A stretch of DNA of 37,433 bases from a virus (IMGVR_UViG_3300025073_000021:1-37433), one strand, 5' to 3'. Positions 6,412-33,638 are shown, counted from the stretch's first letter. The notes: generated from the sequence alone by a model not told the origin. Program-made: numbers and translations.

Positions 6412-7152
6412 ATGAATATAAATAAAATGTTGACTGCAGTGATCGTTTTGTTGGTGGCTGTGCTGGGGTTGAGTGTGTATCTGGTCATGCCAAGCAAAAA
6501 ACTTGGCGGACAATATAACACTAATTACGCCTATTTCAACGGGCTTACCAATAGTGGGGCTACGGTACTTAGTGGGACAAATACTGTAAGTGGAGACACA
6601 ACCTTTACGGGAGCTGCAACCTTTAGTGGTGAGGTGACTGGAATTGCAACATCTTCACTTTCCACTCTAACGGTAACCGGAGCGAGTGTTCTCAATGGTG
6701 GATTGACGATGGATACCTCGGCTTTCACTGTGGCAGACACAAGTGGAAACACATCTATCGGGGGAACATTAGGCGTAACAGGAGTATCTACTCTTGCAAC
6801 AACGACCGCAACATCATTTACAGCTTCATTGCTCGCCAATCTTAACGGCGGGATTGCTGTAGACACTTCTGTTTTTACGGTTGATGGTATAACAGGAAAT
6901 ATCTCAACGAATGGCACGTTAGCTGTCACTGGTAACGCGTACAGTCTAGAAAATATGTCTGTTGGTACGACAACCATGACATACGATTTGTGGGTGACTA
7001 ACGGTGCTAATACCTCAACATTAGCAGTTGGTGGAGCTGGAAGTTCATTAGTATCAAAGATATGCGCTTGGAGTGGAACCTATTTCGTTATTGGTTCACC
7101 TTCAACAACTGGCGCAGGAATGGATTATACAACCTCAACTGTTTGTCAGTAA
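6412..7152 (+). CDS. Membrane-anchored or signal-peptide beta-rich fibre/decoration protein
   Basis: ATG at 6412, hydrophobic segment MLTAVIVLLVAVLGLSVYLVM then KKLGG, Thr/Gly beta repeats, C-terminal Cys pair. Confidence 0.75.
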   Translation: MNINKMLTAVIVLLVAVLGLSVYLVMPSKKLGGQYNTNYAYFNGLTNSGATVLSGTNTVSGDTTFTGAATFSGEVTGIATSSLSTLTVTGASVLNGGLTMDTSAFTVADTSGNTSIGGTLGVTGVSTLATTTATSFTASLLANLNGGIAVDTSVFTVDGITGNISTNGTLAVTGNAYSLENMSVGTTTMTYDLWVTNGANTSTLAVGGAGSSLVSKICAWSGTYFVIGSPSTTGAGMDYTTSTVCQ

Positions 7153-7153
7153 G

Positions 7154-7190
7154 TTCTCCTTGCCTCTCAAAACTGGGGGGCAGGATAGGA
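7154..7190 (+). other. Intergenic RNA hairpin with a C/AU internal loop (candidate processing site)
   Basis: ttct-c-cttgcctctc/ggggggcagg-at-agga; G-U pairs indicate the + strand; no U-tract. Confidence 0.55.
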
Positions 7191-7209
7191 TTTATTTAAT
7201 AATTTATAT

Positions 7210-7602
7210 ATGAACACACATTTCATCAAAGAAATCAGGGCGGCTGCGATTTTAACTACAAGTTATGTAGCAGCCACAGTTTTAGGAGGAGGACGGGATG
7301 AGGCTTTAGTTCCAGAGTATAACGAACTAGCGGCATATTTTATTTATACAAAAGGGTCTTTGACTTCTTTGGAAGTAAAGATTGAGTCGTCACTCGATGG
7401 CACAAATTACGTTACAGAAACGAATGTATCTGTATCAGGTACGACTAACACCATGAGCAAAGGTGAATATACAACTACAGAAGATGGAAATTTTAAAATC
7501 ACTGTTCCAATGTCAGCACGATTTGTAAAAGTTAGTGCAAAAGGTACAGGTACAACAACAAGTTCGTCATTAGCTATCCAGGCAATGTTACATTATGTCT
7601 AA
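7210..7602 (+). CDS. Small beta-sandwich virion (decoration-like) protein
   Basis: 130 aa with VKIESSLDGTNY and RFVKV beta motifs; located in the head module. Confidence 0.65.
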   Translation: MNTHFIKEIRAAAILTTSYVAATVLGGGRDEALVPEYNELAAYFIYTKGSLTSLEVKIESSLDGTNYVTETNVSVSGTTNTMSKGEYTTTEDGNFKITVPMSARFVKVSAKGTGTTTSSSLAIQAMLHYV

Positions 7603-8431
7603 AACATACAGCAATCTTTCAAAGATTCAGTTAAGAAATGAAAAAGAACGTCTATTAGACGAATTGGTTTATTTTTCAGGCAAGTTAAATGAAGCTGAAG
7701 AACAAGCTAAAAAGATTGTAGATCGAGATGCCTATTTGACAGACTTACAGTTAAAAATTGAAAAAGAAGAAAATGTTTATAGCAAAGTTGTTTCTTCTAT
7801 CGAAGAAAAAAACGGAGAACTAGAAAAGCTAAAAGAAGAAAATCTAGTGGCTAAAGATAAATTAAAGATAGTAGAGGAATTGTTAAACAACGTGAGCTGT
7901 AATGGAGAGCAAGAAGTACAGAGATATAAAAATTTAATAAGTAATCTTGAGACTAAGTTGTCACAAATAAAAGAAACGGTGGAAGAGAAACAGCCATTGT
8001 TAGATTCAATAGTTAAACAAATTCAAACAGAGCAAGATTTATTGAATGATTTAACATCACAAAATATAGTTCTAGAGCAAAACATACTTGAATTAAATGA
8101 AGCTATCAAAGTATTGAGAGATGAAGAGACAGAAATAACAGCTAGAATCAATGATTCTCAAAATGAACTATCGATGGTTATTGAATGGGTACAAACCGCA
8201 AAAAAAGATTTAGAAACTATAACAACAAAAAAAGTAGAGACAGAACTAGAAATACAAAAACTTGATAAAAAACATCGTGAGCAATGCTTACTAAGAGAGG
8301 AAGAAATAAACGAGAGAGAAGGACTTTTAATACGGAGAGAAAACCTCATGGAGGGCAAAAGAAAAGAATTGATAGAAATAAAAAATGGATTAGAGAAATA
8401 TCACAACAAACCTATCTTGATGAATATCTAA
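7595..8431 (+). CDS. Long coiled-coil protein
   Basis: 278 aa, E/K/L-rich heptad pattern throughout. Confidence 0.75.
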   Translation: MSKTYSNLSKIQLRNEKERLLDELVYFSGKLNEAEEQAKKIVDRDAYLTDLQLKIEKEENVYSKVVSSIEEKNGELEKLKEENLVAKDKLKIVEELLNNVSCNGEQEVQRYKNLISNLETKLSQIKETVEEKQPLLDSIVKQIQTEQDLLNDLTSQNIVLEQNILELNEAIKVLRDEETEITARINDSQNELSMVIEWVQTAKKDLETITTKKVETELEIQKLDKKHREQCLLREEEINEREGLLIRRENLMEGKRKELIEIKNGLEKYHNKPILMNI

Positions 8432-8519
8432 TGTGACGTATTACAACAGAAAAAATGATATTGGATTATTCCAGCAATAAATAAACGTAATTTAAAAGAG
8501 TCAAAATCGAAGAAATAAT

Positions 8520-9113
8520 ATGAATATCTTAAAACACAAAATAACTAAAATTTCATCTCTAGTTGTTTTGGCTGGAGGTGCTTTGTTTGGCGGATATTAT
8601 AATCTACAACAATATGTGCCAGATGATTTGTATGTAGATACTGCTACAATCACTTCCGCAACCATAGACAATCTTACTTTTGTAACCAGTACACAAACCA
8701 CAGGCATGGTATATGGTGGGGCGACACGAGAAACGAAAACTATTACTTATAATTTTTCCGCAACGACTACTGGAGTTCAAACAATCCAGTTATTTAATTA
8801 TTCGTCTTTGATGCCAAACGAATCATCTGCACAAGTGTTGGTAAAAGTTACTTCAGCGAGTGATGCAACAAATGACACTGACACCTATGCAAAAGGTGTT
8901 TTAATGTATGGTTATGTAAAGAGAACTGACGGAGTTATATCAACAATAGCTACCCCAATGATGGCAAATACTTCTTGTTACAATGATGGCGTGGCGTGTT
9001 CTAGTTCTGGCTTACAACCAACACTTAATAATGTCATATTCAGTTTAGTAGGGCTGACTGGAAAGAATATGTATTGGAATGGAACAGTTGAATTTACTTA
9101 TCAAACTAACTAA
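8520..9113 (+). CDS. Signal/TM-leader beta-rich structural protein
   Basis: Basic N-terminus, hydrophobic SSLVVLAGGALFGG, Thr-rich body, Cys pair (SCYNDGVAC). Confidence 0.7.
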   Translation: MNILKHKITKISSLVVLAGGALFGGYYNLQQYVPDDLYVDTATITSATIDNLTFVTSTQTTGMVYGGATRETKTITYNFSATTTGVQTIQLFNYSSLMPNESSAQVLVKVTSASDATNDTDTYAKGVLMYGYVKRTDGVISTIATPMMANTSCYNDGVACSSSGLQPTLNNVIFSLVGLTGKNMYWNGTVEFTYQTN

Positions 9114-9118
9114 TTTAT

Positions 9119-10777
9119 ATGAAAAAAATACTATATTTTTTCTCACTGTTGGTTTTGCTTGTTCCGTTATTGATACAAGCGACCTATACGCCAACTTATA
9201 CTAATGGGTTTGTTCAGGACATTTTTAATGTGGACGCAATGGCAATGTCCAAAGATTTAGTTGTTTCTTCTACACCAGCCTCTTTAATTGGGGATAATCT
9301 CAATGTCGGTTTGGTGAAATATGAAGTTACCGCTCCATTAAGTCAAACGCTTGCCCCTGCGTCAAGCACAGTATATTTACCTGATAATTTCGTTCAATGT
9401 CATTCTGATAATCTAGGTAACGCTTATACATACAACATAACAATTGACCCGAATGATAATGAAACAATAAACGGACAAGCGACTTATACCATAGATGAAA
9501 ACTGGGGTTCAGTATGTTTACGGGCTGACAGTGATACTAATTGGCGTGTAGTGTATGACAGTCAAACAGATTATCCAACTCTTTCAGGGTATAATCTTTT
9601 ATCAGATTTAACACCTTCTGTTTTCAGAACCAATGAGTCATATATTGTTCCAGCGGCGGCAAGCACGACTGCTTATTATTTAGGTCACGCTAATTATTTG
9701 CTTGACCAATCAGAAGTTGATTTGCCGAATTTGGGTTATGGTGGAAATGCGTATGGTTATCTTTATGGTTATGCTAAACAAAAACCTACTTCAACCTATG
9801 AGGCGTGGTTAATGGTTTTTACTGACCAATCTACAACAGGAACAGTTACTAACCTTAATATGTTGAATATTGGTAGTGAACAGACGGCTTCTGTGGTTAC
9901 TAATTTTACTGCTTTAAATTTATATAATAATCCATACGGTTTTAATCCAACTTCCACTTATTTTGCTAATTTCACCAATACATATTTGACGAACAATATG
10001 ATAAATGTTCGTAACGATTCAGATAAATGGTGGATACCGATGTCTTCGGCTACAAGTTCAATTACTTTCTTTGATACTTCCGCGCGAACGGCATCAATGA
10101 TGACTGTTCAAGCTGGTTCAGCATCAACTCCGATGAATACCCCATATACCGCAGGAGCTTCATTTTCTCAATTTTCTTCAAATATAGGTTTAGGTTTGAT
10201 TGGTTCTCAAACTTCCGCAGGACTTGATACTAGTGAATTTGCCAATGGTGTATCAGGTTTAATTGCTACTCACGCCAGCGATAATGCTGACGCAAATCTT
10301 AACTCTTTCCAAGCGCTTGGTAATTTCGCCGCTGGAAATACAGCGATGACAACCGCTTACGGGGCGGCGATGATAGGTGGCGTTGGTAATTTTGATTATT
10401 TGATAAATACTCAATATGCGTCTGATATTAGGGCGTATAAGGCAGTAAATGACGGCAGTCCAGTTTGGCGTTTTGGCTCAGCGGATGCTGAAAGTTTAGG
10501 AATACAAACTGTGTATGATACTGGTGCACAAACTCTTAATTATGTTAATTTTAATACTTATACAGCAAGTTCAACAGCAGATAAAGGTCAATATATATTT
10601 AATGTAGATGAAACTGAAGTTTTAAGTATTGATGATGCTGGATTGGTAAATAAATATGATGTTTACATAACTACATCTACAAAAGGAATAGTATTGACTT
10701 CACCAGATGGTACTTGTGCACGAGGAACTATAGATAATTCAGATGTACTTACATTTAGTTCTATAACTTGTCCTTAA
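9119..10777 (+). CDS. Signal-peptide-bearing fibre/spike-like protein
   Basis: Sec-type signal MKKILYFFSLLVLLVPLLIQA; ITIDPNDNETINGQATY fibre module; C-terminal GIVLTSPDGTC...TCP. Confidence 0.7.
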   Translation: MKKILYFFSLLVLLVPLLIQATYTPTYTNGFVQDIFNVDAMAMSKDLVVSSTPASLIGDNLNVGLVKYEVTAPLSQTLAPASSTVYLPDNFVQCHSDNLGNAYTYNITIDPNDNETINGQATYTIDENWGSVCLRADSDTNWRVVYDSQTDYPTLSGYNLLSDLTPSVFRTNESYIVPAAASTTAYYLGHANYLLDQSEVDLPNLGYGGNAYGYLYGYAKQKPTSTYEAWLMVFTDQSTTGTVTNLNMLNIGSEQTASVVTNFTALNLYNNPYGFNPTSTYFANFTNTYLTNNMINVRNDSDKWWIPMSSATSSITFFDTSARTASMMTVQAGSASTPMNTPYTAGASFSQFSSNIGLGLIGSQTSAGLDTSEFANGVSGLIATHASDNADANLNSFQALGNFAAGNTAMTTAYGAAMIGGVGNFDYLINTQYASDIRAYKAVNDGSPVWRFGSADAESLGIQTVYDTGAQTLNYVNFNTYTASSTADKGQYIFNVDETEVLSIDDAGLVNKYDVYITTSTKGIVLTSPDGTCARGTIDNSDVLTFSSITCP

Positions 10778-10788
10778 CATATTAGTAT

Positions 10789-11088
10789 ATGTCGAAACAA
10801 TTAGGCGAAGCAATAAGCCCACCAGGACGTAAAATATTACAAGCAGTAGCTGCTCTTGCAGTTTTAGCAGGGGTAGCTTATGGAGGGTATATGTATTCAT
10901 TCAAAGAAAATCTTGTTTTGACAACCTTTGAGAAAGGCAGACAAGAAGGCTTACAAGCTGGTCAAGTCATAGGTTCACAACAACAACAAAGTGCTGTGCA
11001 ACAACTTATTCAGCAGGGTAAATTGATTGTATCTCCTACGTTGCAAGCTGAGATAAATAAAGAAATACCACAAGAAACACCTCAATAA
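10789..11088 (+). CDS. Small membrane protein
   Basis: One TM helix (ILQAVAALAVLAGVAYGGY) followed by a Q-rich helix. Confidence 0.7.
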   Translation: MSKQLGEAISPPGRKILQAVAALAVLAGVAYGGYMYSFKENLVLTTFEKGRQEGLQAGQVIGSQQQQSAVQQLIQQGKLIVSPTLQAEINKEIPQETPQ

Positions 11089-11092
11089 TTAT

Positions 11093-13714
11093 ATGAAAAA
11101 AAAATCTGAAGAAAAAGAAAAACTTGGTGGTTATCAAAATGTGCAAGATACTACTCGTAAACCTTATTTTGATTTTAACCAAGTTGGAAGTTCACCAACA
11201 ACTCCTCCTACTGGTGTAATGAGAATGTTCACTAAAACAGATGGTTCTGCATATCTTCTTGATGATCAGGGGGTAGAAACCACAGTAGGTGGTGCAACAG
11301 GTTCAGGAGACATGACTAGAGCGGTATACGATTCAGATGATGATGGAAAAGTTACATCTGCAGTAACTGCAGATAACGCTACTCAACTTAATAGTCAATC
11401 AGCTTCATATTACGCAACTGCAGGGGATCTTACATCTCACACAGGAAATACCTCTAACCCACATTCCGTCACAGCCGCACAAGTGAGTGCCGTACCTACT
11501 TCTTACCTCGACACAGATAGCACAATGGCGGCTAATTCTGATGCAAAAGTAGCTACTCAGAAAGCTACTAAAGCTCACGTTGTTACTCAACTTGCTACGC
11601 TTACTAAGTCATCAGTGGGATTAGGAAATGTAGATAACACGTCTGATGCTACTAAGAACGCCGCGTCTGTTGCTTTGACGAATAAAACGATTGATGTAGA
11701 TAGTAACACAGTTTCAAATATTGAAGTAGATAATTTTAAATCTGGGGTTATAGACACTGATGGTACGCTTCTTGCTAATTCTGACACAAAACTTGCTACC
11801 CAAAGAGCTGTAAAAGCCTATGCTGACTCAGTTAGAACAGGCACAGCAGCTCGTATTGCGTGTGATGTGGCAACTGACGCAGCTTTACCAGCATGTACGT
11901 ATGATAATGGTACAGGAGGTGTAGGTGCTACTCTTACAGGAGATGCAGTCGGTGCTCTAACTGTTGATGGTGTTGATTTGAATGCAACAGGAGCTGAAGG
12001 CAATGGGCGTGTTCTTGTCAAAGATCAGGCGAACGGAGCACATAACGGAGTATACCTAGTCACTGAAGCGGGAGACGTTGGTACTGCGTTTATTCTCACC
12101 CGTGTTACAGACTATGATGCTGCCGATGCTTCTGAAATATCGAGTGGTTCTTTCTTCACGGTAATCTACGGTACAGAAAATAACAGTTCTCTTTGGATGC
12201 TTGCTACCACAGGAACAATAGTAGTAGGCACAACATCTCTTGTATTCACTCCATTGCCTGTTGCAGGTGCTTACACTGCCTCAAATGGTGTGAAAGTTGT
12301 AACAAGTGACATGCAGATTGATCTTTCTGATACTAACCCATCACTTGAAGTTTCAGATGGTGGTCTTAGGGCAAAAGTTGACGGGAGCACTATAGAACGA
12401 GCAGCTGGTGGGCTTCAGATTAAAGACGGTGGAGTTACCGCAGCTAAAATAGCTAATGCGGCTGGTATTCCATATTCAAAACTTACGCTTACAAACGAGA
12501 TAGTAAACGCCGACATTGATGACGCAGCTGCTATCGCTGAAACAAAACTCGCTTTGGATGTTGCTACTGCGACGCTTGACTCTACAAAACTTGCTAAAAC
12601 TCTTAACTCTGCTCAAATATTCGTAGGTAACGGCTCAAATGTAGCGACAGGAGTTGCAATGAGTGGGGACGTAGCCGTAGATAACACAGGTGCAACTACT
12701 ATTCAAAACGGAGCTGTTGAATATCCTATGCTTGCAGGCTCTATTCCTGATTCAAAACTAGACCAAATCACCACAGCTTCTAAAGTATCTGGTGCAGCTC
12801 TTATCGCATTAGCAAGTATTCCTTCAGGTGCAGGACAAGTGCCTGTAGCTAACTTAGGCACTGGCACAGGTTCATCAAGTAATTATCTTAGAGGGGATGG
12901 AGCGTGGAGCCCAGTAACAGGTACGAGTAGTGATTATTCTGTTACGCCATTATATTTTATGAATAAAGCCACAGCTGTTACATGGACTAACATGCCCGCA
13001 GCGGTAACTACTTTTTATAGTGCAGTATTAACTTATCGTACACGTTTAGACTTAACGTATGCTACACAATATAGAATAGTGGTTTATATGAGCGTAGCAG
13101 GGGCTACGAATGCTGACCTTAACTTACAGTATTCTTTAGATGGTTCAACAAGTTGGACTGCTTGTGATACAGGAGGTGCTGGTGAATTAGCTATAGGTTC
13201 TACTGGTTTTAAGGCGAGTTCATGGACTAACCTAGTTGCTGGTGCAAAGACAGATGTGCATTTAAGAGTTGTAGGCAAAGAGGGAGATGGGATTATTGAT
13301 CCTGTATTTTATGATTTAAAAGTTGAATTTAAGTATCCTGTCTACTCTCGTAAAATCCAAACAAAACAACCTATTGCAGAGACAACGACACTTACTACAG
13401 GGGATGGAATAGGGTATATAAATGTTCCATCAGAAATGAACGGCTTGGTTATTGCTGGCGTCGAAGGGTTTGTTTATACCGTTTCGTCTTCTGGTGCAGT
13501 AAATATCCAGCTTCATAACATGCGAACTGACCAAGATATTCTCTCAACCGCTCTGACGATTGACGCTAACGAATACACATCAGACACAGCGGCTACTCCT
13601 GCAGTTATTAACGCTACTTACGATGATGTACAGGCAGGGGACAGAATCCGTATTGACGTAGATGGAGCAGGTACAGGCACAAAAGGTTTAGAAGTTAAAT
13701 TGAGATACGCTTAA
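11093..13714 (+). CDS. Tail fibre protein
   Basis: 873 aa with HTGNTSNPHSVT, VGLGNVDNTSD, ATQKATKA and RVLVKDQ...NGVY fibre modules and V/I-T-A-A-K-I/L-type repeats. Confidence 0.85.
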   Translation: MKKKSEEKEKLGGYQNVQDTTRKPYFDFNQVGSSPTTPPTGVMRMFTKTDGSAYLLDDQGVETTVGGATGSGDMTRAVYDSDDDGKVTSAVTADNATQLNSQSASYYATAGDLTSHTGNTSNPHSVTAAQVSAVPTSYLDTDSTMAANSDAKVATQKATKAHVVTQLATLTKSSVGLGNVDNTSDATKNAASVALTNKTIDVDSNTVSNIEVDNFKSGVIDTDGTLLANSDTKLATQRAVKAYADSVRTGTAARIACDVATDAALPACTYDNGTGGVGATLTGDAVGALTVDGVDLNATGAEGNGRVLVKDQANGAHNGVYLVTEAGDVGTAFILTRVTDYDAADASEISSGSFFTVIYGTENNSSLWMLATTGTIVVGTTSLVFTPLPVAGAYTASNGVKVVTSDMQIDLSDTNPSLEVSDGGLRAKVDGSTIERAAGGLQIKDGGVTAAKIANAAGIPYSKLTLTNEIVNADIDDAAAIAETKLALDVATATLDSTKLAKTLNSAQIFVGNGSNVATGVAMSGDVAVDNTGATTIQNGAVEYPMLAGSIPDSKLDQITTASKVSGAALIALASIPSGAGQVPVANLGTGTGSSSNYLRGDGAWSPVTGTSSDYSVTPLYFMNKATAVTWTNMPAAVTTFYSAVLTYRTRLDLTYATQYRIVVYMSVAGATNADLNLQYSLDGSTSWTACDTGGAGELAIGSTGFKASSWTNLVAGAKTDVHLRVVGKEGDGIIDPVFYDLKVEFKYPVYSRKIQTKQPIAETTTLTTGDGIGYINVPSEMNGLVIAGVEGFVYTVSSSGAVNIQLHNMRTDQDILSTALTIDANEYTSDTAATPAVINATYDDVQAGDRIRIDVDGAGTGTKGLEVKLRYA

Positions 13715-13715
13715 T

Positions 13716-14690
13716 ATGGTATTTGATTCACAGTGGTTTGAACAAAATCAAAAGAAACTTCTCTGGCTTTTGAACACGCCAATTATTAAGTATTGGTTTA
13801 GGTGGTGCTTACGAATTAGAAGACATGATTGTACTTCTCGAATTATTAAAATCGAGCCAAACAAATATTGGTTTCAAGATGAGAACATCTACGTAGATAT
13901 TAGGACTCATAATAAGTTTTCTAAACGACTTTATTACGCTTTTAAGCCTTTTTGGTACTTGTTGCATGGTGTTGATTTTCTTCTTAACAGAGCCAAATTT
14001 CAGTATAATTTCGGGTTTGACACCTTAACTGCGTACCCTGATGCAAGCAGTGGAGGTACAACTGTAGACGGAGTAGTTGGACGTGTTGAAGTAGACGAAA
14101 CTTTTGCAACAATCCGTGCTGGGGCTGGGAATGGGTTTGATGTTACAGGTACAGAAGATTATTTTTGTGGATTAGATGCTACGACCACAACAGACCAATT
14201 TGCAAACCTGATAAGAGGAATATATACGTTTGATACATCAAATCTAAGATGGTCTGAAGTTTCCTCAGTTACGCTGTCATTATTTGGTCAAGGTACACAT
14301 TATGTTGGTTTAAGTGCAACTGGTGGGACAGCAGCAGATATACATGTTGTTTCAGCAAGTCCTGCTGCTAACAACAACTTAGCCAACTCAGATTATGGTA
14401 ACACAGGTACAACGAGCTTCGGCTCTATAGCAAGTGGTTCATGGAGTGCCATCGCATATAATGATTTTTCACTTAACGCATCTGGATTAGCAAATGTAGC
14501 AATTAACGGAATCACTAAGTTTTGTTCAAAATTATCATGGGATGTAACAGGTACATTTGGCGGGGCATGGTTGACAGGAGCTTCAGAGGCATTTCAAGGT
14601 TACTTCGCAGATCAAACAGGAACAACAAACGACCCAAAACTCGTTGTGACTTATACAACTCCGTTTATTCCATTATCAACATTCATGTAA
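13716..14690 (+). CDS. Virion protein with an aromatic amphipathic leader and a C-terminal beta-sandwich (carbohydrate-binding-like) domain
   Basis: Trp/Phe/Lys-rich first ~100 aa ending NFG, then an RGIYTFDTS...DPKLVVTY domain. Confidence 0.65.
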   Translation: MVFDSQWFEQNQKKLLWLLNTPIIKYWFRWCLRIRRHDCTSRIIKIEPNKYWFQDENIYVDIRTHNKFSKRLYYAFKPFWYLLHGVDFLLNRAKFQYNFGFDTLTAYPDASSGGTTVDGVVGRVEVDETFATIRAGAGNGFDVTGTEDYFCGLDATTTTDQFANLIRGIYTFDTSNLRWSEVSSVTLSLFGQGTHYVGLSATGGTAADIHVVSASPAANNNLANSDYGNTGTTSFGSIASGSWSAIAYNDFSLNASGLANVAINGITKFCSKLSWDVTGTFGGAWLTGASEAFQGYFADQTGTTNDPKLVVTYTTPFIPLSTFM

Positions 14691-14691
14691 T

Positions 14692-14850
14692 ATGGACTGC
14701 AAAGAACGCTACAAAGAATTTAGTATGGAAGGAGAATATATCGTAGACGATGAACTAGAGCATGATTGGATAATACATAATTTACAAGATTTTATTATTA
14801 AACAATGCCAATGGTGCAGAGTAACAAAAGATACATCGTATGGAGCCTGA
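14692..14850 (+). CDS. 52-aa Cys/His-containing protein (not in the ORF track)
   Basis: MDCKERYKEF...HDW...CQWCRVTKDTSYGA; fills the gap between two coupled genes. Confidence 0.55.
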   Translation: MDCKERYKEFSMEGEYIVDDELEHDWIIHNLQDFIIKQCQWCRVTKDTSYGA

Positions 14851-15130
14851 CGAAGAACACAAAAAATATTTTCATAATATGTCTCCAGAGACAAAAGAGG
14901 CTTTAGAATCTCTTAACAAACGTATGGATGTTATGGAAGAAAACCATAAGGAATTACGACAAGATGTAAAAGAGATAAAAGAAAATCATTTAGCTCATTT
15001 GCAATGTGGACAGAATGATTTAAAGATTGAAATGACCGCTCAAAGTACTAATTTAAAATGGATATTGATTATAGGTGGTTTTACTATCGTACAGGGTGCT
15101 GGAATATTAGTTGCTATTTTAACAAAATAA
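14840..15130 (+). CDS. Coiled coil with a C-terminal TM helix (XhlA/holin-like)
   Basis: Heptad region then WILIIGGFTIVQGAGILVAIL; located at the start of the lysis-position block. Confidence 0.6.
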   Translation: MEPDEEHKKYFHNMSPETKEALESLNKRMDVMEENHKELRQDVKEIKENHLAHLQCGQNDLKIEMTAQSTNLKWILIIGGFTIVQGAGILVAILTK

Positions 15131-15136
15131 TATATT

Positions 15137-15202
15137 GGAACTTCCCCCTCAATCGAGATACTTATCGATTGACACTCATATCATGGTTGGGTGGGAGGTT
15201 CT
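15137..15202 (+). ncRNA. Three-way-junction RNA leader of the GC-rich cassette
   Basis: Outer stem ggaacttccc/gggaggttct; inner hairpins tcaatcga/tcgattga and cactca/tgggtg. Confidence 0.5.
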
Positions 15203-15220
15203 AAACAATGGAGGGATAAG

Positions 15221-15295
15221 GTGAAAGAAGTGTTGGAGTACATCATGTTGCTCGTTACAGTGGCTCTCATCATCGCAGAGTTCTCACTCCTGTAG
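15221..15295 (+). CDS. 24-aa hydrophobic peptide, type I toxin-like (not in the ORF track)
   Basis: GGAGGG SD then GTG; translates as MKEVLEYIMLLVTVALIIAEFSLL. Confidence 0.55.
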   Translation: MKEVLEYIMLLVTVALIIAEFSLL

Positions 15296-15304
15296 GAGGG
15301 AAAC

Positions 15305-15556
15305 ATGAAGACCATGTGTGGGTGCGGACTTCGCATGAAGGACTACGGTGGTGTCGATGGTTTCGCCATCGAGGAGTGCGACTGGTGCTCGCAGAACGGT
15401 GGCGTGTACTGCAAGTCGCCCTACTGGGACACGAAACGGGACAAGGAGGATGACAAGCGTGTCCGACAGGGTATGGCGTACAAGGAAGCCATGAACAACG
15501 TGACCCCGCTCGAACGCACGAGACAGGGGAAGAAGAAGGGAAGGAGAGCCGCATGA
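15305..15556 (+). CDS. Small Cys-rich (Zn-ribbon-like) protein with a basic tail
   Basis: AGGAGGG SD 4 nt before ATG; CGC...CDWC...C; GC-rich codon usage. Confidence 0.7.
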   Translation: MKTMCGCGLRMKDYGGVDGFAIEECDWCSQNGGVYCKSPYWDTKRDKEDDKRVRQGMAYKEAMNNVTPLERTRQGKKKGRRAA

Positions 15557-15756
15557 GACTCGACGAGAAGTACGTTCAGCCGAAGCTGCTCTGCCCCACC
15601 TGCCGTGAGAAAACCGACCACGTCATCGACCACAAGACGCTCACCACTTCGGGAAGCCTCGTGCTGGCGTACTACACGTGCAAGACGTGTGGTAAGTCGC
15701 ACCAGGCGATCCTCGGAGAACTCCAGACCTTGTGTCAAGAGTTCAAAGCCGCCTAA
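15553..15756 (+). CDS. Small Zn-ribbon protein
   Basis: AAGGAGA SD, ATGA overlap with the upstream gene; CPTC...CKTC. Confidence 0.7.
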   Translation: MRLDEKYVQPKLLCPTCREKTDHVIDHKTLTTSGSLVLAYYTCKTCGKSHQAILGELQTLCQEFKAA

Positions 15757-15761
15757 TGCCA

Positions 15762-15783
15762 CCCACAGGGCATCTGCTGTGGG
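15762..15783 (+). other. Hairpin closing the GC-rich cassette
   Basis: cccacag/ctgtggg stem just after the last cassette stop codon; no U-tract. Confidence 0.5.
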
Positions 15784-15797
15784 GAAATCTATATATT

Positions 15798-16691
15798 ATG
15801 GAATACGGAACAGGCTTAGTGCCAGACATTTTAGACGAAAGGGATTACGAGTTAGACCATATCCTTATGGGTTCTCCTATTTTCGATTGGGAGAAAGGAT
15901 ATGACATCGAGGAAGAAATAGGTATGGAGATACCAACTAAAAGTCAGAATGGCTCTGGTTCATGTGTCGGACAGACATCAGCTACCTATATTTGGGTCAA
16001 GAATGTCGTTGAGGCTGTTCAGAAATATGGAAAATTAACAGAACAAACAAAACAATTTTTTAAAGAATACTACCAGATTTCTGCAAAGGCAGTCTACTCG
16101 CAGATACATCTTGAACAAGGTGGTGCATACTCACGAGACGCTATGATGTTGTGGAGAGACTGGGGTGCAGTACGAGAGAAAGAAGTGCCAAGCTACGATA
16201 ATGGCAATCCACCAAGTGAAGAGTTTATGCGAGGCACAGAATGGATGAATAAAACCTTATATCCTAAAACACTGCAGTCTTTTGAGGCAAGAATGCTCAG
16301 AGACAAGTCAATAGACGCTATTGCACAGGCAATACGAGATAATCACGGAATACATTTCGGAGTAAGAGGTGAGTGGAATAACACGTGGAAGAGTATGTTC
16401 CCTTTAGCACCTCAGAGTACGAATTTCTTTTACCATGCTCTCTACGCTGGTAAGGCGAATATGATAAACGGCAAGAAGTACATCGGTATTAAGAACAGCT
16501 GGGGAGACAATGTCGGACAGAAAGGTTGGCAATGGCTGTCTGAAGAGTGGTTTCCAGAGTATGTGATGAATCCGTGGGTAGCATTTGACCAAGCTAATTC
16601 AGGGCTACTAAAGTTCATAGATAAAAAAGGTAAACCACGTAAGCTCCCTGCTTATTGGATTAAATCAATAGCACATTTAATGTATGTCTAA
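15798..16691 (+). CDS. Papain-like cysteine peptidase (clan CA, C1-like) 1
   Basis: QNGSGSC (oxyanion Gln and catalytic Cys), YHAL (His), IKNSWG (Asn); propeptide-like GLVPD..DERD. Start placed at ATG 15798. Confidence 0.9.
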   Translation: MEYGTGLVPDILDERDYELDHILMGSPIFDWEKGYDIEEEIGMEIPTKSQNGSGSCVGQTSATYIWVKNVVEAVQKYGKLTEQTKQFFKEYYQISAKAVYSQIHLEQGGAYSRDAMMLWRDWGAVREKEVPSYDNGNPPSEEFMRGTEWMNKTLYPKTLQSFEARMLRDKSIDAIAQAIRDNHGIHFGVRGEWNNTWKSMFPLAPQSTNFFYHALYAGKANMINGKKYIGIKNSWGDNVGQKGWQWLSEEWFPEYVMNPWVAFDQANSGLLKFIDKKGKPRKLPAYWIKSIAHLMYV

Positions 16692-17676
16692 ACTATACTG
16701 GAAAATAACAAACGCCCTAGAAGCACAGGTTAAAAAATTCGTTCAGCCTTCTGGTGTTAAGACAGGTCTCTTGCGACATAAAGAAGATGGACGAGACAAG
16801 AACTTTGAGGCTACGATGGGTTGGCTTGGTAAACAACCTACATTCAAATCAGTCTCAAACTTCAATGGCGAAATAATGAGACAAGTACATAACATCTGTG
16901 TGTTCGCTTCTCGTAAAATGGGGCGACTATACCAGCAGGGATTAGAGTTTTCAATGAAACTTCCAGTTGTGTGGGGCAAGCGTAATGGTTGGGTAACAGG
17001 AGATGGGTTTTCAAGTCTTCGTGCAGAGAATGATAACGGAACTAAAAATGGGCTTGTGCTTGTAGAGGACTGTCCTGATACTCAGATACCGTGGAGAGAT
17101 TTTTCAACGCTTGATAACGCCACATACGCAAGCCTTATGGAGAAAGCAAAGCTCTGCAAGATACCTGCGTATAGACCTATTTACAACGTAGAAACAGCAC
17201 TAGAAGCTCTTGACAAAGGATTTGTACTATTCACTGGTTACAAGTGGTACAACAGTGATTACAGACTTAAACCACCTGACTTCATCTATAAGTTTAATGG
17301 CTCTATTATAGGGCACCATGCTATCAATGTAACAGGGACAATGCCGAATGGTTTGTATCAACAGCCTAATACATTTGGTAAAGAGTGGGGTGATGGCGGT
17401 GTAGGTTGGCTTAGAACTATCTTCTCTAAAAATCAATATCCTATCTACATTGAGGAGTTTATCCCACTAGAAACACGAATACCACTATTTATAAGGCAGA
17501 ATGAAGGCAGAGTAGTACGAACAGCGAATGACCCTGAGTGCTACAAGCTAGAAAATGGCACTAAACGATATATAGAGACTCTTAAAGATTATCATGCTCT
17601 CGGTGGAAAGAATAGAGTCGTAAAACAGGAACTGCTCGATGCAGTGCCTACAGGAGTACCTTATTCATTAACTTAA
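16684..17676 (+). CDS. Papain-like cysteine peptidase 2 with a C-terminal putative surface-binding domain
   Basis: QVHNIC, GHHAI and PNTFGKEWG catalytic motifs; C-terminal EGRVVRTANDPECYKLENGTKRYI module. Confidence 0.8.
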   Translation: MSKLYWKITNALEAQVKKFVQPSGVKTGLLRHKEDGRDKNFEATMGWLGKQPTFKSVSNFNGEIMRQVHNICVFASRKMGRLYQQGLEFSMKLPVVWGKRNGWVTGDGFSSLRAENDNGTKNGLVLVEDCPDTQIPWRDFSTLDNATYASLMEKAKLCKIPAYRPIYNVETALEALDKGFVLFTGYKWYNSDYRLKPPDFIYKFNGSIIGHHAINVTGTMPNGLYQQPNTFGKEWGDGGVGWLRTIFSKNQYPIYIEEFIPLETRIPLFIRQNEGRVVRTANDPECYKLENGTKRYIETLKDYHALGGKNRVVKQELLDAVPTGVPYSLT

Positions 17677-17680
17677 ACTT

Positions 17681-17914
17681 ATGTCTCTCGTAAAAAGATT
17701 TCCAGTGCTAGGTTCAAGTCAAAACCCAGAACAACTAGCACTTACAGTAAAAGGTGTACTTTTAACACTCATTCCTATTGTTGTTATGATGGCTGGCGGA
17801 TTGAATATTACCCTCAACTCAGATGATTTAATAGCATTTGTAAATACATTATTTGGAATTGTAACTCTTGGTATTACATTGTACGGAATTGTAAGAAAAA
17901 TCTTTAAGAAATAG
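17681..17914 (+). CDS. Holin-like two-TM protein
   Basis: 77 aa, two hydrophobic helices, basic C-terminus; follows the peptidases. Confidence 0.7.
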   Translation: MSLVKRFPVLGSSQNPEQLALTVKGVLLTLIPIVVMMAGGLNITLNSDDLIAFVNTLFGIVTLGITLYGIVRKIFKK

Positions 17915-18050
17915 CCTCAACCTCTCGTGCTATATCGGGCAGGATGCTAGATATACTGCGGAGCTATACATAGTCTGGGGTCTCCGAGTAATCGGGGTGT
18001 TACTTAGCCCTTTAGTCCCTTAGTGGGTAATGCTAGAGGGCTAGAATAAC
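17915..18050 (+). ncRNA. Structured intergenic RNA between the lysis block and tail genes
   Basis: GC-richer than its flanks; ctccga-GTAA-tcgggg GNRA hairpin and a 13-bp stem ttagccctttagt/gctagagggctag. Confidence 0.45.
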
Positions 18051-18059
18051 ATAATTTAT

Positions 18060-18731
18060 ATGACACCAAATCAACTTCAAACTTTATTTCAAGAATTAGT
18101 GGATGATACTAATTTAGCAGAGTCAACGGTATACACGTTTTTTAATAATGCTTTTAATGCGTTATGGCTTAAAAGACCCTGGGAAATAGCAAAGAAGTCC
18201 GATGACACTAAGTCTACAACTGTAGGTGGCACGTCAGTTGCTCTACCTACTAAATTTTTAAGACCATTACCTATTTGGATTGGAAGCACACAGATTTTAC
18301 CTATAAAAAGAGAAGATAGACGTTTATTTAGAGACAGTATGTTTCGATATTACGTTGATTGGCAAACATCCACTATCAAACTGACTTATAGTCCTACGTC
18401 AGCAGAGACTATCTATTGGGATTACATCTATGAACCTGATAACGCATTTACAACTGCTCTTGAAAGCACTGATTTAGAGACAACTATCCCTGGATTTAAA
18501 AAAGCATTTCATCCGTTAGTAGCGTATGAGGCGGCAAAGCTCTTCTATTACCAGGAGGTAGGATCTAAGAACGATAGTTGGACTTCAGAAATGCAATTTG
18601 AATATGATAGACTTTTTAATTTAATGTGTAGTTGGGACGCAGGGTTAAAGTCTGACGCACAAAATACTTCAATCCCAGATTTAATTTATTCAGGAAACAA
18701 TCGCAGTGATGTGATTGAACTTGGAGAATAA
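18060..18731 (+). CDS. Head-tail adaptor protein
   Basis: N-terminal helical pair, VALPTKF and FHPLVAYEAA motifs; located before the nozzle gene. Confidence 0.75.
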   Translation: MTPNQLQTLFQELVDDTNLAESTVYTFFNNAFNALWLKRPWEIAKKSDDTKSTTVGGTSVALPTKFLRPLPIWIGSTQILPIKREDRRLFRDSMFRYYVDWQTSTIKLTYSPTSAETIYWDYIYEPDNAFTTALESTDLETTIPGFKKAFHPLVAYEAAKLFYYQEVGSKNDSWTSEMQFEYDRLFNLMCSWDAGLKSDAQNTSIPDLIYSGNNRSDVIELGE

Positions 18732-18732
18732 T

Positions 18733-20637
18733 ATGTCAAATAGAAGTGTAAAAACAAATCTATTCAAGTATGGTGTCGTAGATAAATACGAAGCCTCTGA
18801 AATCCCACGTGGTGCTGCTTCGGCTTCTTCTAATTTCTTGACTAAACTCGATAGTATCGAATTGACCCGTGGACGTAAACGCTTAGGAGCTGAGATTACT
18901 GGTTCAGGTAAAATAACTGGTTTAAAGGTGGGCTACACAGGCACGGGTACACAGGTGTTATATCGGACAATTTCAGGAGGGAAATTACAGTATTATAACT
19001 CAACTACTGAATTATGGGTTGACGTACAAACTGGACTAACAAACGAAGACCACCAGTTAGAACCATATCGTTCTTTGGCAGGTGCTCAACTTATCATGTC
19101 GTCTGACACTGATGGATATTATAAAGTCATGGTAGATAACGCAACTGCAGTTAATGTAAATGATAGCACTCAGCAACCTGTAAAAGGAAAATTGAGAATA
19201 AAACGAGGACGTTCGTTTATGTGGTCTCACTCTGACCCAGCGACATTATATGGGTCATATATAGACGACCAGAATGTAAGTGACCAATACACTGCTGTTT
19301 CTGCCGAAGCTGTCGGTGGTTCAGGAGCAACACGGGCAGGCACTTTAGGTTTTAAAGCTGGTGGTGCGAGAAGAACATGTTTTAAAGTTTCGTTTACCGA
19401 CGGGACTGAGACTATTTCAGATAACTTCGATGGAACGCTCACAGGGTCAGCAGGAGGAACAGGAACGATAAACTACGCTACGGGTGCTTATTCAGTGACA
19501 TTTAACGCCGCTCCTGGTGCTCCTGTAACTACAAGTTATTTCTGGGAAGATATAGCTGTTCATGGAATATTAGACTTTACCAAGTCTGGTACTCGTGGAG
19601 CTGGAGAAGGCTTCTCGCTAAAACAAGCAGAGGGTGGAGATTCAATTCAAAACGTCGTCGTATATTCTGATGAAATTTATTCATTTAAAGAGCGGTCAAT
19701 TTACAAACTTACTCTTTCAGATGATGATACTTCTATTCTGAACAAGGTTTTTTCTCATCGAGCTGGAATAACATATTGGAAAGCTCTGTGGGAAGACGAG
19801 GAAGGAATCTTTTTTATTGACGATTCAACTGAAAACGAACCAAAATTAAGAATTGTAAAGCCACAAGAAGCTAACGGCGTTGTCATGCCACAACTCGTAA
19901 CTGATGCTGTAGACCTAACAGGATATTTATTTGATGAGTGCGATATGGTTGGATGGGGTGATTATGTTGTATTTACAGGACGGTCTACTTCAGTGACAGA
20001 AAATGACACTTTATTCTTATTTCATAAGATTTATAGAAGTATAGATAAAATCAATTGGTCACTTTCACGTATTGAAGTCATTGATGGCTCTCTAGTAGGT
20101 GGCGAATCAATCTCACAAAACGTATACCTTCTTTTTTCTGGGTTAGATGATGACAACTTCGGTTTGGATGCGTCATGGGAAAGTAAAGACGATGAGTTAA
20201 GCGATAAAAACACTGACGCTTCAGGACTTAAAAAAGTAAAACGACTACGAGTACGCGGGCTTATTGGGGTGAATCAAAAGATATATGTTTATGCTAATTA
20301 TGACAATTCAGGGTATCAGCTTGTCATAGACACTGACCACCCACTAGGTGCAATCGAAGGAAATGCAAGTTATGTAGATGGTGGTCAAAGTGTTGCTGTT
20401 GGCGCGACAACCATAGGACGTTTTGAAATAGGTGGAGGAACATCAGGAATAACGGCTTATCCTTTTTATACAGAATTTCGCTTAAATAGCCCTAAATTTG
20501 AACGAGTACAGTTGAAGTTTGCTCTACAGGCAATCAATGACGATAACAGTGAAAATATAGGTTATGCCTCTATATCTGAATACGAATTTTATTCAATACT
20601 TGGAAAATCTAAACGTATACCAAGTAAATATTCTTAA
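18733..20637 (+). CDS. Tail nozzle / head-closure protein (P22 gp10-like beta-propeller)
   Basis: About 634 aa, beta-rich, with TRGRKRLG and KKVKRLRV motifs and an inserted GTINYATG domain. ATG 18733 preferred as start. Confidence 0.75.
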   Translation: MSNRSVKTNLFKYGVVDKYEASEIPRGAASASSNFLTKLDSIELTRGRKRLGAEITGSGKITGLKVGYTGTGTQVLYRTISGGKLQYYNSTTELWVDVQTGLTNEDHQLEPYRSLAGAQLIMSSDTDGYYKVMVDNATAVNVNDSTQQPVKGKLRIKRGRSFMWSHSDPATLYGSYIDDQNVSDQYTAVSAEAVGGSGATRAGTLGFKAGGARRTCFKVSFTDGTETISDNFDGTLTGSAGGTGTINYATGAYSVTFNAAPGAPVTTSYFWEDIAVHGILDFTKSGTRGAGEGFSLKQAEGGDSIQNVVVYSDEIYSFKERSIYKLTLSDDDTSILNKVFSHRAGITYWKALWEDEEGIFFIDDSTENEPKLRIVKPQEANGVVMPQLVTDAVDLTGYLFDECDMVGWGDYVVFTGRSTSVTENDTLFLFHKIYRSIDKINWSLSRIEVIDGSLVGGESISQNVYLLFSGLDDDNFGLDASWESKDDELSDKNTDASGLKKVKRLRVRGLIGVNQKIYVYANYDNSGYQLVIDTDHPLGAIEGNASYVDGGQSVAVGATTIGRFEIGGGTSGITAYPFYTEFRLNSPKFERVQLKFALQAINDDNSENIGYASISEYEFYSILGKSKRIPSKYS

Positions 20638-20640
20638 TCT

Positions 20641-22326
20641 ATGAAAAGAATTTTTATAGGCTTGCTACTCGCCTTAGTAGTTGCAACACCTGTGAACGCT
20701 TATGTGGTGCAAAGAGGGGACACATTATCAAAAGTCTCATCTCGTTTTGGTATGACATGGCAGGAATTATGGGACTTGAATAAAGATATTGAGAATCCTA
20801 ATTTAATCTATCCAGGACAGGAATTAGATACTGGTGGCGATATGTGGATTCCAGAACTCGGTGTGACTCCACTTGATGTTGTGGCACTCTACGAAGATAA
20901 TCTACAAAATACGATTACTACATCTGATACATCGCTTACACTTGTCAGAGGTACAGATAAATCAGGATCTGCTCTATCAGGTACGTTCGGATTTATCATA
21001 GATGAAGGAACGACATTAGAAGAATTTATTATAGGAACATGTGCTGGAACTGCATGTACTTCTCTACAACGAGGTATTTCTGTAACAGACGGAAAGACAG
21101 AGGTAACTGCTTTGAAAAAAGCACATAGAAAAGGTGCATCTATAAAAATGACTAATTATCCTATCTTAGGACGATTGAATCGAATTTTATCAGGTCAAGA
21201 CTCTACAGGAACGACGACGTGGAAATGGGGAGGCGAAGTTAACACAACTCCTCTTACTCTTTATTTCTCTAACGGTACTGCTACTAACCCATTCCTTAGA
21301 TATAACGGGACTAATTGGCAATTTTCTGATGATGGCATCTCAAGTACAAATTTGGTAACAGGTGGTGGTGGACTTACCGCTTCTACGACAGCAGGTATAG
21401 GTATCACAGATTCTAAAATATATGTCAACGCCTCCTCAACAACAGGTATGGCATTTGACACAGACGGAGCCTTATATCAGAAGACTCAAAGTGCGACAGG
21501 TGTAGAAAGTGATAGCAACGGAGTAAAAATCAACACTTCAACACTCACAAACCTTATCGCCACCTCAACCCCCACAGCTTCTAAGATTCCTATGGCTAAT
21601 AGTAGTGGTGAGTTACATAATGATTGGATAGATGAAGGAAACTTAAATACACAACCTTTTATCGCTGGAGAAACTATAGATACATCAAGCACACCTCAAG
21701 CAGTTTACTTCAGCACATCAACTGGGCAAGTTTTAAAGACAGATGCAGACGCTGTTATAACTACATTCGGTTTTATAGGTTTTGCACAATTCGGACAGAC
21801 TATAACATCAGGAAATGCTATTAACGTACAAACAGACGGACTTGTATATGGGTTTACAGGGCTTACTACTGGGACGGTGTACTATGTGTCAAATGTAACA
21901 GGTGGAATTAGTACGTCAGCAGGAACAAATAGTTACAAGATAGGTAGGGCTATATCCCCAACGACTCTTTTAATAGAGAGAGGACTCAAAGTAATCAGTG
22001 GCACGATGCAATTTACCGCCACTGCGACTACTATAATAAATACTGGTTTTCAAGCATCACGTGTGAGAATACATGCTATAGGAGATGGTGCTTCTAGCTT
22101 TGGAAGTCAAGGTGGTTGGTCAGTAAATGGAGGAAACGATTGTATAAGTTTTGATACAAATGGAACAGTAACTAATGCCATACGAACAGATGCATGGTAC
22201 ACAGGAGATGACGCTACTGTTTATCATACAGGAGCAATCACTGCCACAGATAGTACCGTTTCATTTGTAAATACAGAAACATCTAACTCAATTACTGTAG
22301 ACTTATTCTACGAAATTGAAGGTTAA
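20641..22326 (+). CDS. Signal peptide + LysM + tail-spike/needle-like protein
   Basis: MKRIFIGLLLALVVATPVNA signal; LysM YVVQRGDTLSKV...NPNLIYPGQEL; then tail-like domains (LQRGI..TDG, GLTTGTVYYVS). Confidence 0.85.
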   Translation: MKRIFIGLLLALVVATPVNAYVVQRGDTLSKVSSRFGMTWQELWDLNKDIENPNLIYPGQELDTGGDMWIPELGVTPLDVVALYEDNLQNTITTSDTSLTLVRGTDKSGSALSGTFGFIIDEGTTLEEFIIGTCAGTACTSLQRGISVTDGKTEVTALKKAHRKGASIKMTNYPILGRLNRILSGQDSTGTTTWKWGGEVNTTPLTLYFSNGTATNPFLRYNGTNWQFSDDGISSTNLVTGGGGLTASTTAGIGITDSKIYVNASSTTGMAFDTDGALYQKTQSATGVESDSNGVKINTSTLTNLIATSTPTASKIPMANSSGELHNDWIDEGNLNTQPFIAGETIDTSSTPQAVYFSTSTGQVLKTDADAVITTFGFIGFAQFGQTITSGNAINVQTDGLVYGFTGLTTGTVYYVSNVTGGISTSAGTNSYKIGRAISPTTLLIERGLKVISGTMQFTATATTIINTGFQASRVRIHAIGDGASSFGSQGGWSVNGGNDCISFDTNGTVTNAIRTDAWYTGDDATVYHTGAITATDSTVSFVNTETSNSITVDLFYEIEG

Positions 22327-25601: not shown

Positions 25602-25760
25602 TTTTTTGTTAGATAACAAATTATTGATTTCATCATTTTTTTCATTGTAATTGTCTAGTGCGTCATTGATTTTTTCAGTTTCTTTAGCTTTACTCCACCA
25701 CGCAAATATGATAAAAACAATCGCTAAAAAAATTCCTAAAACACTTAGTTGTATTGTCAT
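25587..25760 (-). CDS. 57-aa N-terminally anchored membrane protein (not in the ORF track)
   Basis: MTIQLSVLGIFLAIVFIIFAWWSKAKETEKINDALDNY... Confidence 0.6.
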   Translation of the reverse strand: MTIQLSVLGIFLAIVFIIFAWWSKAKETEKINDALDNYNEKNDEINNLLSNKKSSSK

Positions 25761-25767
25761 ATATTTA

Positions 25768-25968
25768 TTATTTAATTCTATTAGCTTTATCTATACAATA
25801 TTTAATCACTTCATCTGGAACCATTGTTACATCATTATTTGAGATGAAGCAATCGTTAAAAACTTGGTTTCTTGCATGTTTTTTAACTAAGTAATTACTA
25901 TCAGTCAATAAAAGTATAACTATATTTATATTGATGATAATTATTATAATAAAAACTTTCCAAAACAT
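25768..25968 (-). CDS. 66-aa N-terminally anchored membrane protein with a Cys pair
   Basis: Ile-rich TM then a soluble C...C domain; downstream of a leftward promoter. Confidence 0.6.
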   Translation of the reverse strand: MFWKVFIIIIIININIVILLLTDSNYLVKKHARNQVFNDCFISNNDVTMVPDEVIKYCIDKANRIK

Positions 25969-33600: not shown

Positions 33601-33638
33601 CCAACGAACAACTCTATAACTCAATAACTAAATAATAT

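Follow-up and report, generated by a model that had tools for sequence, protein, structure and literature searches.

To our knowledge, tailed-phage particles are held to be completed in the cytoplasm before lysis. Virion proteins that are made with a leader, pass into or through the membrane and are cut before assembly are found in filamentous phages, in which the M13 procoat pVIII and pIII are processed by the host leader peptidase. In tailed phages, N-terminal leaders of structural proteins are also removed proteolytically, and T4 gp21 and phiKZ gp175 exemplify pro-peptide removal in the cytoplasm. A report on phage A1002 suggests cleavage of its fibre gp41, the first ~30 residues of which are missing (PMC13730344). 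Here we describe IMGVR_UViG_3300025073_000021:1-37433, a viral stretch of 37,433 nucleotides (the window) in which several head- and tail-associated proteins begin with signal peptides or transmembrane (TM) anchors. Because these leaders end in [LFV]G where leaderless versions of the proteins begin, the parts are likely to be finished outside the cytoplasm and cut free. Genes are named by their first coordinate (Table 1), and a slash marks the junction.

The N terminus of the protein encoded by 20641 has a maximum 15-residue hydropathy of 2.7, and its LysM domain matches PF01476 (Pfam, E = 2e-14). Residues 60–200, used as the query, matched 59 proteins; with the addition of further loci the set grew to 115 distinct bodies, or 107 after dereplication at 90%, with the fragments L112 and L118 left out. 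A leader of 27–88 residues is present in 89 of the 107 homologues and absent from 18, and none has a leader of intermediate length. [LFVI]G makes up the two residues directly before the conserved body in 66 of the 89 leader forms and lies within −5 to +1 in 10 more, compared with a background of 49 of 2,028 spacer positions (2.4%). Gly occupies position −1 in 70 of the 89, and position −2 is mostly Leu (43), Val (15), Phe (13) or Ala (9). All 18 leaderless forms, which belong to several lineages, start within three residues of the junction, often with Met exactly on the Gly. Start-codon miscalls were ruled out as an explanation by an in-frame stop no more than seven codons upstream in 11 of the 11 leaderless loci that were checked.

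On a FastTree phylogeny of the 20641 body, the leader label changes 5 times (mean for shuffled labels, 17), and 4 of these changes are forced by branches with at least 95% support. A quick version of the nozzle tree (30 genomes) requires 4 changes, of which 2 are forced. The N terminus of 20641 therefore converges repeatedly on the junction and, judging from these comparisons, the leader is a real and conserved feature that was gained or lost repeatedly.

By a crude rule, 28 of the 31 leaders of at least 60 residues combine an AxA-type signal-peptidase site with a domain or extended spacer, and 13 of the 58 shorter leaders have such a site. What follows the site in long leaders is mostly LysM or one of two other small domains; Pfam and NCBIfam searches returned no leader family or sorting signal other than LysM. 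The spacer between the hydrophobic segment and the body is freely exchanged, with the LG retained. The leaders may thus come in two designs, one in which the TM segment stays as an anchor and one in which a wall-binding domain holds the protein after loss of the signal; either would be discarded at the LG. The two small domains that replace LysM (in P0124, P0126, P0129, L101:9770, L125:526 and L107:9776) have no Pfam match and are candidate new cell-envelope-binding domains.

The gene after the capsid, 6412 in the window (maximum hydropathy, 3.0), has a comparable split. The post-capsid gene begins with a hydrophobic leader in 49 distinct cases, two of them belonging to other genes, and lacks one in 42. 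Across 40 aligned leader-bearing homologues, conservation of G32 and G33 is 90% or more, and 40 of 48 bodies of the family have exactly two cysteines after the split. Leaderless post-capsid proteins typically begin M-x-K-x-[FLY]-N-R (24 of 42 match [FLY]NR). BLAST joins the two classes through 10 pairs (E up to 0.01), with no match to a reversed decoy. L133 and L107 align with the leaderless L153 from residue 3 of the latter (E = 1.5e-6), so that the Met of L153 falls on the junction Gly of L133. The initial annotation had proposed aligning homologues as a check, and in both the 20641 and 6412 families the [LF]G junction proved to be conserved far above chance.

That annotation had also described four fibre-like proteins (6412, 8520, 9119 and 20641) that begin with a signal peptide or TM anchor and carry paired cysteines and A-[ST]-[ST]-[ST] motifs. 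Every sequence it quoted is in its place. The hydrophobic starts are clear in 6412, 20641 and 9119 (maximum hydropathy, 2.8) and weak and short in 8520 (1.8); the cysteines number two in 6412, four in 9119 and three, not merely a pair, in 20641. The motif excess is borne out, with 10 copies in the four proteins versus 1.95 expected by shuffling, and 2 versus 2.7 in the other 30 window proteins of at least 90 residues. Taken singly, the excess is significant only in 9119 (4 versus 0.5 expected) and 20641; 8520 has one copy (p = 0.17).

Among homologues, the bias follows the leader. The variable part of leader-bearing 20641 proteins contains 287 A[ST][ST][ST] motifs versus 50 expected (5.7-fold), whereas leaderless homologues contain 10 versus 8, and there are none in 4,342 leader residues. 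Ten other patterns range from 0.8- to 1.7-fold in the same bodies ([ST]Gx[ST], 1.18), and A[ST][ST]T accounts for 220 of 286 tallied cases. Of 6 contrasts, 5 show lower motif levels in the leaderless lineage, and cysteines follow suit; 76 of the 89 leader-bearing bodies have an even cysteine count.

The trait extends across genomes. Of the 48 contigs in which both marker genes could be seen, 42 agree, with leaders on both genes in 32 and on neither in 10; of the 6 mixed contigs, most have a different gene after the capsid, and one lineage is truly mixed. In L111 and L016/L099, the 20641 homologue is leaderless and the post-capsid protein (in L111 also a fibre) bears a leader, a natural intermediate. 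In 24 leader genomes we found 80 Ser/Thr/Gly-rich proteins with a hydrophobic N terminus, marker genes included, containing 229 motifs versus 42 expected. Another 43 Ser/Thr/Gly-rich proteins of the leader genomes, for which no leader was called, contain 62 versus 20, an excess that probably reflects weak signals or wrong starts. In 15 leaderless genomes, 0 of 70 Ser/Thr/Gly-rich proteins have a hydrophobic leader and motifs number 23 versus 29 expected. Portal, adaptor, nozzle and ejection proteins of the leader genomes have the motif at background level, and the capsid is about twofold enriched in both classes.

These patterns marginally favour A[ST][ST][ST] as a site for extracytoplasmic O-glycosylation made by the host. 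D[ST][AILVMT], which we take to be the general O-glycosylation sequon of Bacteroidota, was tried and rejected (0.77-fold in leader bodies). The glycosyltransferase (GT) families PF00535 and PF00534 (GT1/GT2) are absent from all 24 leader genomes, other GT families not having been searched. A probable sugar coat on virion proteins would be shared with the mycobacteriophages Che8 and Rita, for which virion glycosylation is reported (PMC11256854). There, however, the glycosyltransferases are those of the phage, and here the motif lies on putatively exported accessory parts and not on the capsid.

Several observations place the body of 20641 in the tail. In the genomes listed, the gene keeps its place between nozzle and ejection genes whether or not it encodes a leader, and the window contains no leaderless duplicate. 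Residues 81–180 of the AlphaFold model are confident, and the top VIA-align chain is 8jov_1 from the phage GP4 portal–tail complex (Z = 9.3), with model residues 78–203 aligned to 4–119 (107 aligned; root-mean-square deviation, 6.0). This alignment makes residue 75 of 20641 correspond to residue 1 of 8jov_1. Fold and N-terminal register are thus similar, but identity is 12% and the GP4 chain has no leader in its modelled range. Most BFVD matches are to phage proteins, and those with names include several tail fibres; ESM Atlas neighbours fall mostly in tailed-phage clusters; sequence searches of the PDB with the nozzle and a 20641 alignment gave no match. Position after the nozzle and a tail-complex-like fold are what distinguish a podovirus tail accessory protein, and 20641 has both. 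A role as tail needle was considered and dropped for lack of evidence. When the nozzle was co-folded with two copies of 20641(75–240), the score was 0.54 (best of three controls, 0.00), rated weak by the tool, which marks 116 of 157 solved and 2 of 215 mismatched pairs as positive, 18 of the solved and both mismatched ones at 0.60 or below. Contact agreement between runs was at least 58% and partner predicted local distance difference test (pLDDT) at least 67. The nozzle is thus a weakly predicted docking partner of mature 20641.

The remaining fibre-like genes fit this arrangement unevenly. No homologues of 8520 or 9119 were found, and a hidden Markov model (HMM) of the C-terminal cysteine segment picked up neither 9119 nor 6412. 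The protein encoded by 9119 has no [LF]G junction near its leader and is likely to be exported and freed by signal peptidase alone, with no [LF]G tether; some other fibres likewise carry only a signal-peptidase site where the tether junction would lie. Between 9119 and 11093, positions 10789–11088 encode a 99-residue membrane protein with a hydrophobic segment ending in AYG-GY and no homologue in the fetched loci.

The initial annotation had extended the [LF]G boundary to 11093 and 13716. KLG-G is present in 11093, but the protein does not appear to be tethered or exported (hydropathy, 0.3; no motifs versus 1.0 expected; three cysteines). Because a homologue of its N region (P0319) bears a signal peptide, LysM and LG, and leaderless homologues start 2–5 residues after the LG of the window protein, the KLG may be a vestige. 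In 13716, whose family comprises 647 homologues with no Pfam match, the boundary is strongly conserved (Gly in 118 of 120 aligned rows, the following Phe in 118), but what precedes it is a non-Sec domain (window positions 13716–14015; maximum N-terminal hydropathy, 0.87). This domain is as well conserved as the body. In the family, which leaderless genomes also encode, the median motif count is zero, and a homologue without the leader begins directly after the Gly, one residue further on (E = 2e-37). The domain may be a second, separate and cytoplasmic type of leader, possibly a membrane-parking pro-domain. Type IV prepilins, in which a G/F cut precedes a hydrophobic helix with Glu5, were rejected as a model: in 6412 and 20641 the hydrophobic segment precedes the junction, and 13716 has G/F but low hydropathy.

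The window encodes two papain-like proteases next to its holin-like genes. The product of 15798 exceeds the PF03051 cut-off, has 3ois as its nearest solved structure (E = 1.6e-6) and retains catalytic residues (Q..SC, HA and NSWG); it has no signal peptide. The product of 16684 (Q..IC, HA and NTFG) has no Pfam match, and the ESM Atlas returned nothing for its C-terminal domain. The two represent architectures seen across relatives, one compact with a C-terminal amphipathic helix and one longer with an extra domain. Papain-family enzymes favour a hydrophobic P2 residue. Many compact C1 proteins (among them L160:6404, L090:6459 and L096:2400) have xFG-A in the pro-region a few residues before the expected mature start; it resembles the leader junction and is a possible self-processing site.

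The initial annotation had likened this processing to C39 peptidases and double-glycine leaders, an analogy that fails. Both systems would cut after a leader ending in Gly, but the PF03051 and 3ois matches make 15798 C1A-like rather than C39. No C39 domain was found in either protease (Pfam C1_2/C1 for 15798; PDB matches to the C1 family), and scans of 35 window proteins revealed no coupled ATP-binding cassette exporter. Moreover, the Gly pair at −2/−1 is missing, P2 being Leu, Val or Phe, and the leaders belong to the Sec signal or TM anchor type.

We propose that these phages build their particles in two compartments. Leaders, junction, leaderless register, motif and cysteine bias and gene order can be read directly from the sequences, and the scheme built on them is our favoured account, held with moderate assurance. 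Capsid, portal, adaptor and nozzle, none of which has an export signal, would assemble in the cytoplasm, and accessory head and tail proteins would be sent through host secretion; we are highly confident that these accessory parts are exported, and very likely they have a role in the virion. Each would be held at the surface by a removable tether, in some cases a TM anchor that stays uncleaved and in others a signal peptide with LysM or another small domain behind it. Once outside the cytoplasm, the retained body would form disulfides and probably receive an O-linked modification from the host at A[ST][ST][ST]. Cleavage after Leu-, Phe- or Val-Gly, which we consider probable, would free the part for late joining, giving it the N terminus that leaderless orthologues obtain from a start codon; this new terminus would dock on the nozzle (20641) or the capsid (6412). 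The likeliest protease would be the compact papain-type 15798, although for the phage C1 enzyme as the leader-cutting protease we see the case as evenly balanced. Since it has no signal peptide, it would reach the tethers only once holin-driven lysis opens the membrane, which would time final assembly to lysis, and addition to the particle at or after lysis is slightly favoured. The most specific version, in which a large family of Patescibacteria podophages displays glycosylated, disulfide-bonded fibres on disposable surface tethers, clipped by a papain protease released at lysis, with A[ST][ST]T as an undescribed host O-glycosylation sequon, is doubtful as a whole. The initial annotation's export, tethering and release at [LF]G is strongly supported by comparison for 20641 and 6412, and not for 11093 as a tethered part.

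Several findings weigh against this account. The case is known here from genes and predicted models, and signal and TM calls were made by hydropathy and regular expressions rather than SignalP. No [LFVI]G occurs near the junction in 13 of the 89 leaders of 20641 homologues, and 8 of the 89 bodies lack A[ST]3. The likely identity of 6412 as a head decoration protein rests on gene position and weak homology, since HMM/hhalign comparison of its leader and leaderless families found no link (probability 0.1) and its model is poor (pLDDT 56, insufficient for a fold search). For 20641, Foldseek found nothing in the PDB below E = 0.001 (8jov_1, E = 0.023), and the 8jov_1 match is suggestive because similar barrels, a common fold, occur at Z = 5–8 in other phage proteins and ATPases. 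The choice of protease meets further difficulties. C1 proteases are also encoded in 9 of 15 leaderless genomes, adjoining holins, and we rejected their mere presence as a discriminator of the trait; the strict compact form is missing from 19 of 36 leader contigs, which have only the longer, lysin-like one; and the [FL]G/F junction of the 13716 family is kept in one leaderless genome (G044) with no C1 found in 40,000 of 40,291 bases, a hint of a host or other protease. These three observations favour an alternative in which the route of export, tethering and release is unchanged and the cut at [LFV]G is made by a protease of the host envelope; the two papain-like proteins of the phage would then both be lysins, and release of mature parts could precede lysis. 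Its weakness is that a C1 protease occurs in 24 of 24 leader genomes and that the compact form is present in 17 of 36 leader contigs with C1 versus 0 of 9 leaderless ones (Fisher p = 0.009, or 0.03 without near-duplicates), although the strict rule was set after the data had been seen and kinship was not corrected for. The compact form also coexists with other lytic candidates, as four genomes with only compact C1 have a separate amidase lysin and several others a second C1, which fits a non-lytic job. Overall, we judge cleavage by a host protease unlikely.

A different possibility is that the leaders are never cut and that the proteins are surface adhesins, receptor-blocking or remodelling proteins, or remain membrane-attached on particles, with LG as a structural linker. 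TM anchors and LysM are ordinary surface-retention devices, cleavage at LG is a prediction from sequence, and 10 of 50 relatives are proviruses or carry integrases. However, neither an integrase nor a tRNA turned up in the window, leaderless orthologues begin at the junction and the leaders are free of motifs; the tail-complex fold and fixed position of 20641, with no leaderless duplicate to replace it, also argue for a virion part. Permanent attachment therefore seems quite improbable, and host-surface remodelling, which the initial annotation had offered as an alternative, is less likely than before. Alternatively, the leader could simply park proteins at the inner membrane face for cytoplasmic assembly, with no true export or glycosylation, as the non-Sec aromatic N-domain of 13716 with its similar junction and the missing signal peptide of the candidate protease might suggest. 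AxA signal peptides followed by LysM, basic N termini before the hydrophobic segment, mostly even cysteine counts and a motif bias confined to leader forms all point to the outside, and make this explanation very improbable.

Set beside the described systems, the export, tethering and release proposed here share features with each and coincide with none. As in filamentous procoats, virion proteins would enter or cross the membrane with a leader, but this is a lytic HK97-type tailed phage with terminase, portal and holins, and the cut would fall at a second site downstream of the TM segment or LysM, so that the hydrophobic part is discarded; a filamentous virion is ruled out by the terminase, portal, major head protein and adaptor. 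Tailed-phage pro-peptides are not known to direct export or to tether proteins to the wall, the roles proposed for the leaders described here, and the candidate enzyme in this case is C1A-like. In the openly readable literature we found nothing on exported, tethered or LG-cleaved tailed-phage parts, and no match for a protein glycosylation motif of Patescibacteria.

The host is likely to belong to the Patescibacteria, a link that comes through relatives and not from the window itself. The provirus G023, which bears leaders, is part of a 122,695-bp contig with the label Patescibacteria group bacterium, and Patescibacteria and Dojkabacteria labels are also found on a capsid homologue (P0059) and on a homologue of 13716. 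Contrary to this link, the relative G024 is on a 209,498-bp contig labelled Syntrophales. A GTDB scan gave two uninformative contigs of 4–5 kb labelled Lithacetigena and Clostridia. Shine–Dalgarno-like sequences precede just 0–26% of genes in all 40 genomes. Proteins identical to P0001, P0121, P0465 and P0473 of the window are recorded on a 617,594-bp contig, which may be a provirus or a misassembly.

The window, the whole record, is a complete podovirus-type genome; a 127-base terminal repeat implies that it is circular, with 37,306 bp. Beyond the features in Table 1, it encodes DnaB, YqaJ, an SLT protein and two ejection-like proteins. Among 50,697 GenBank phage records, the capsid has 26 matches, all falling short of 80% of its length, and the 20641 body has no relative; by sequence, no cultured phage is close to this one. 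Relatives are common in IMG/VR, with 185 capsid matches (80 kept), and the 20641 family accounts for 72 matches. In the major capsid protein, ~100 residues (roughly 225–330) lie beyond the PHROG 267 match and possibly form a protruding insertion domain. A predicted protein of 262 residues that matches no family contains six-residue repeats, encoded by an 18-base tandem repeat at positions 33624–34068 for which the repeat scan counted 17 overlapping copies. On the minus strand at 25587–25968, opposite the ejection genes, two short hydrophobic open reading frames (ORFs) may encode superinfection-exclusion proteins.

Table 1. Coordinates of features in the window (a slash marks the junction)
Feature	Coordinates	Strand	Description
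Large terminase	519		
SU10-type portal	1999		
Major capsid protein	5187..6386	+	PHROG 267, E = 3.5e-28; core, cytoplasmic, no leader
Post-capsid fibre-like protein	6412..7152	+	TM anchor, spacer, L31-G32/G33; body with 2 Cys, 2 motifs
Leu-Gly junction of 6412	6502..6507	+	Putative mature start 6508
Fibre-like protein, possible member	8520..9113	+	Weak hydrophobic N-terminal stretch ending F23-G24/G
Fibre-like protein, Sec-type signal peptide	9119..10777	+	4 motifs, 4 Cys
Large fibre, no export signal	11093..13714	+	12-residue KLG leader; not counted as exported
Aromatic non-Sec N-domain protein	13716..14690	+	Conserved ~100-residue N-domain ending F99-G100/F101
Holin-like membrane protein	14840..15130	+	PHROG 1193, E = 1.6e-7; PHROG 689 holin, E = 0.0018
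Compact papain (C1A-like) protease	15798..16691	+	C-terminal amphipathic helix; start codon uncertain, ORF opens 15732
Second papain-like protease, likely endolysin	16684..17676	+	Extra C-terminal domain; PHROG 16701, E = 1.4e-7
Small two-TM protein	17681..17914	+	Putatively holin-like by position and shape
Tail adaptor, SU10-type	18060..18731	+	PF24175 SU10_adaptor, E = 6.5e-9; core, no leader
Nozzle-like tail protein	18733..20637	+	634 residues; core, no leader; putative name, from gene order and size
Nozzle-adjacent tail protein	20641..22326	+	Signal peptide, LysM, L73-G74/V75, conserved putative docking domain 75–200, fibre-like rest
Leu-Gly junction of 20641	20857..20862	+	Putative mature start 20863

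If true, a conserved route of export, tethering and release for head and tail parts would break the rule that tailed-phage particles are completed in the cytoplasm, and would explain how disulfides and host sugars come to be on the host-recognition gear of a phage. It would assign a likely job to the papain-like proteases that are common in these genomes, and it offers exact predictions in the form of neo-N-termini and a protease–substrate pair. A[ST][ST][ST] would also become a candidate modification motif for the Patescibacteria, whose cell-surface biology is hard to study.

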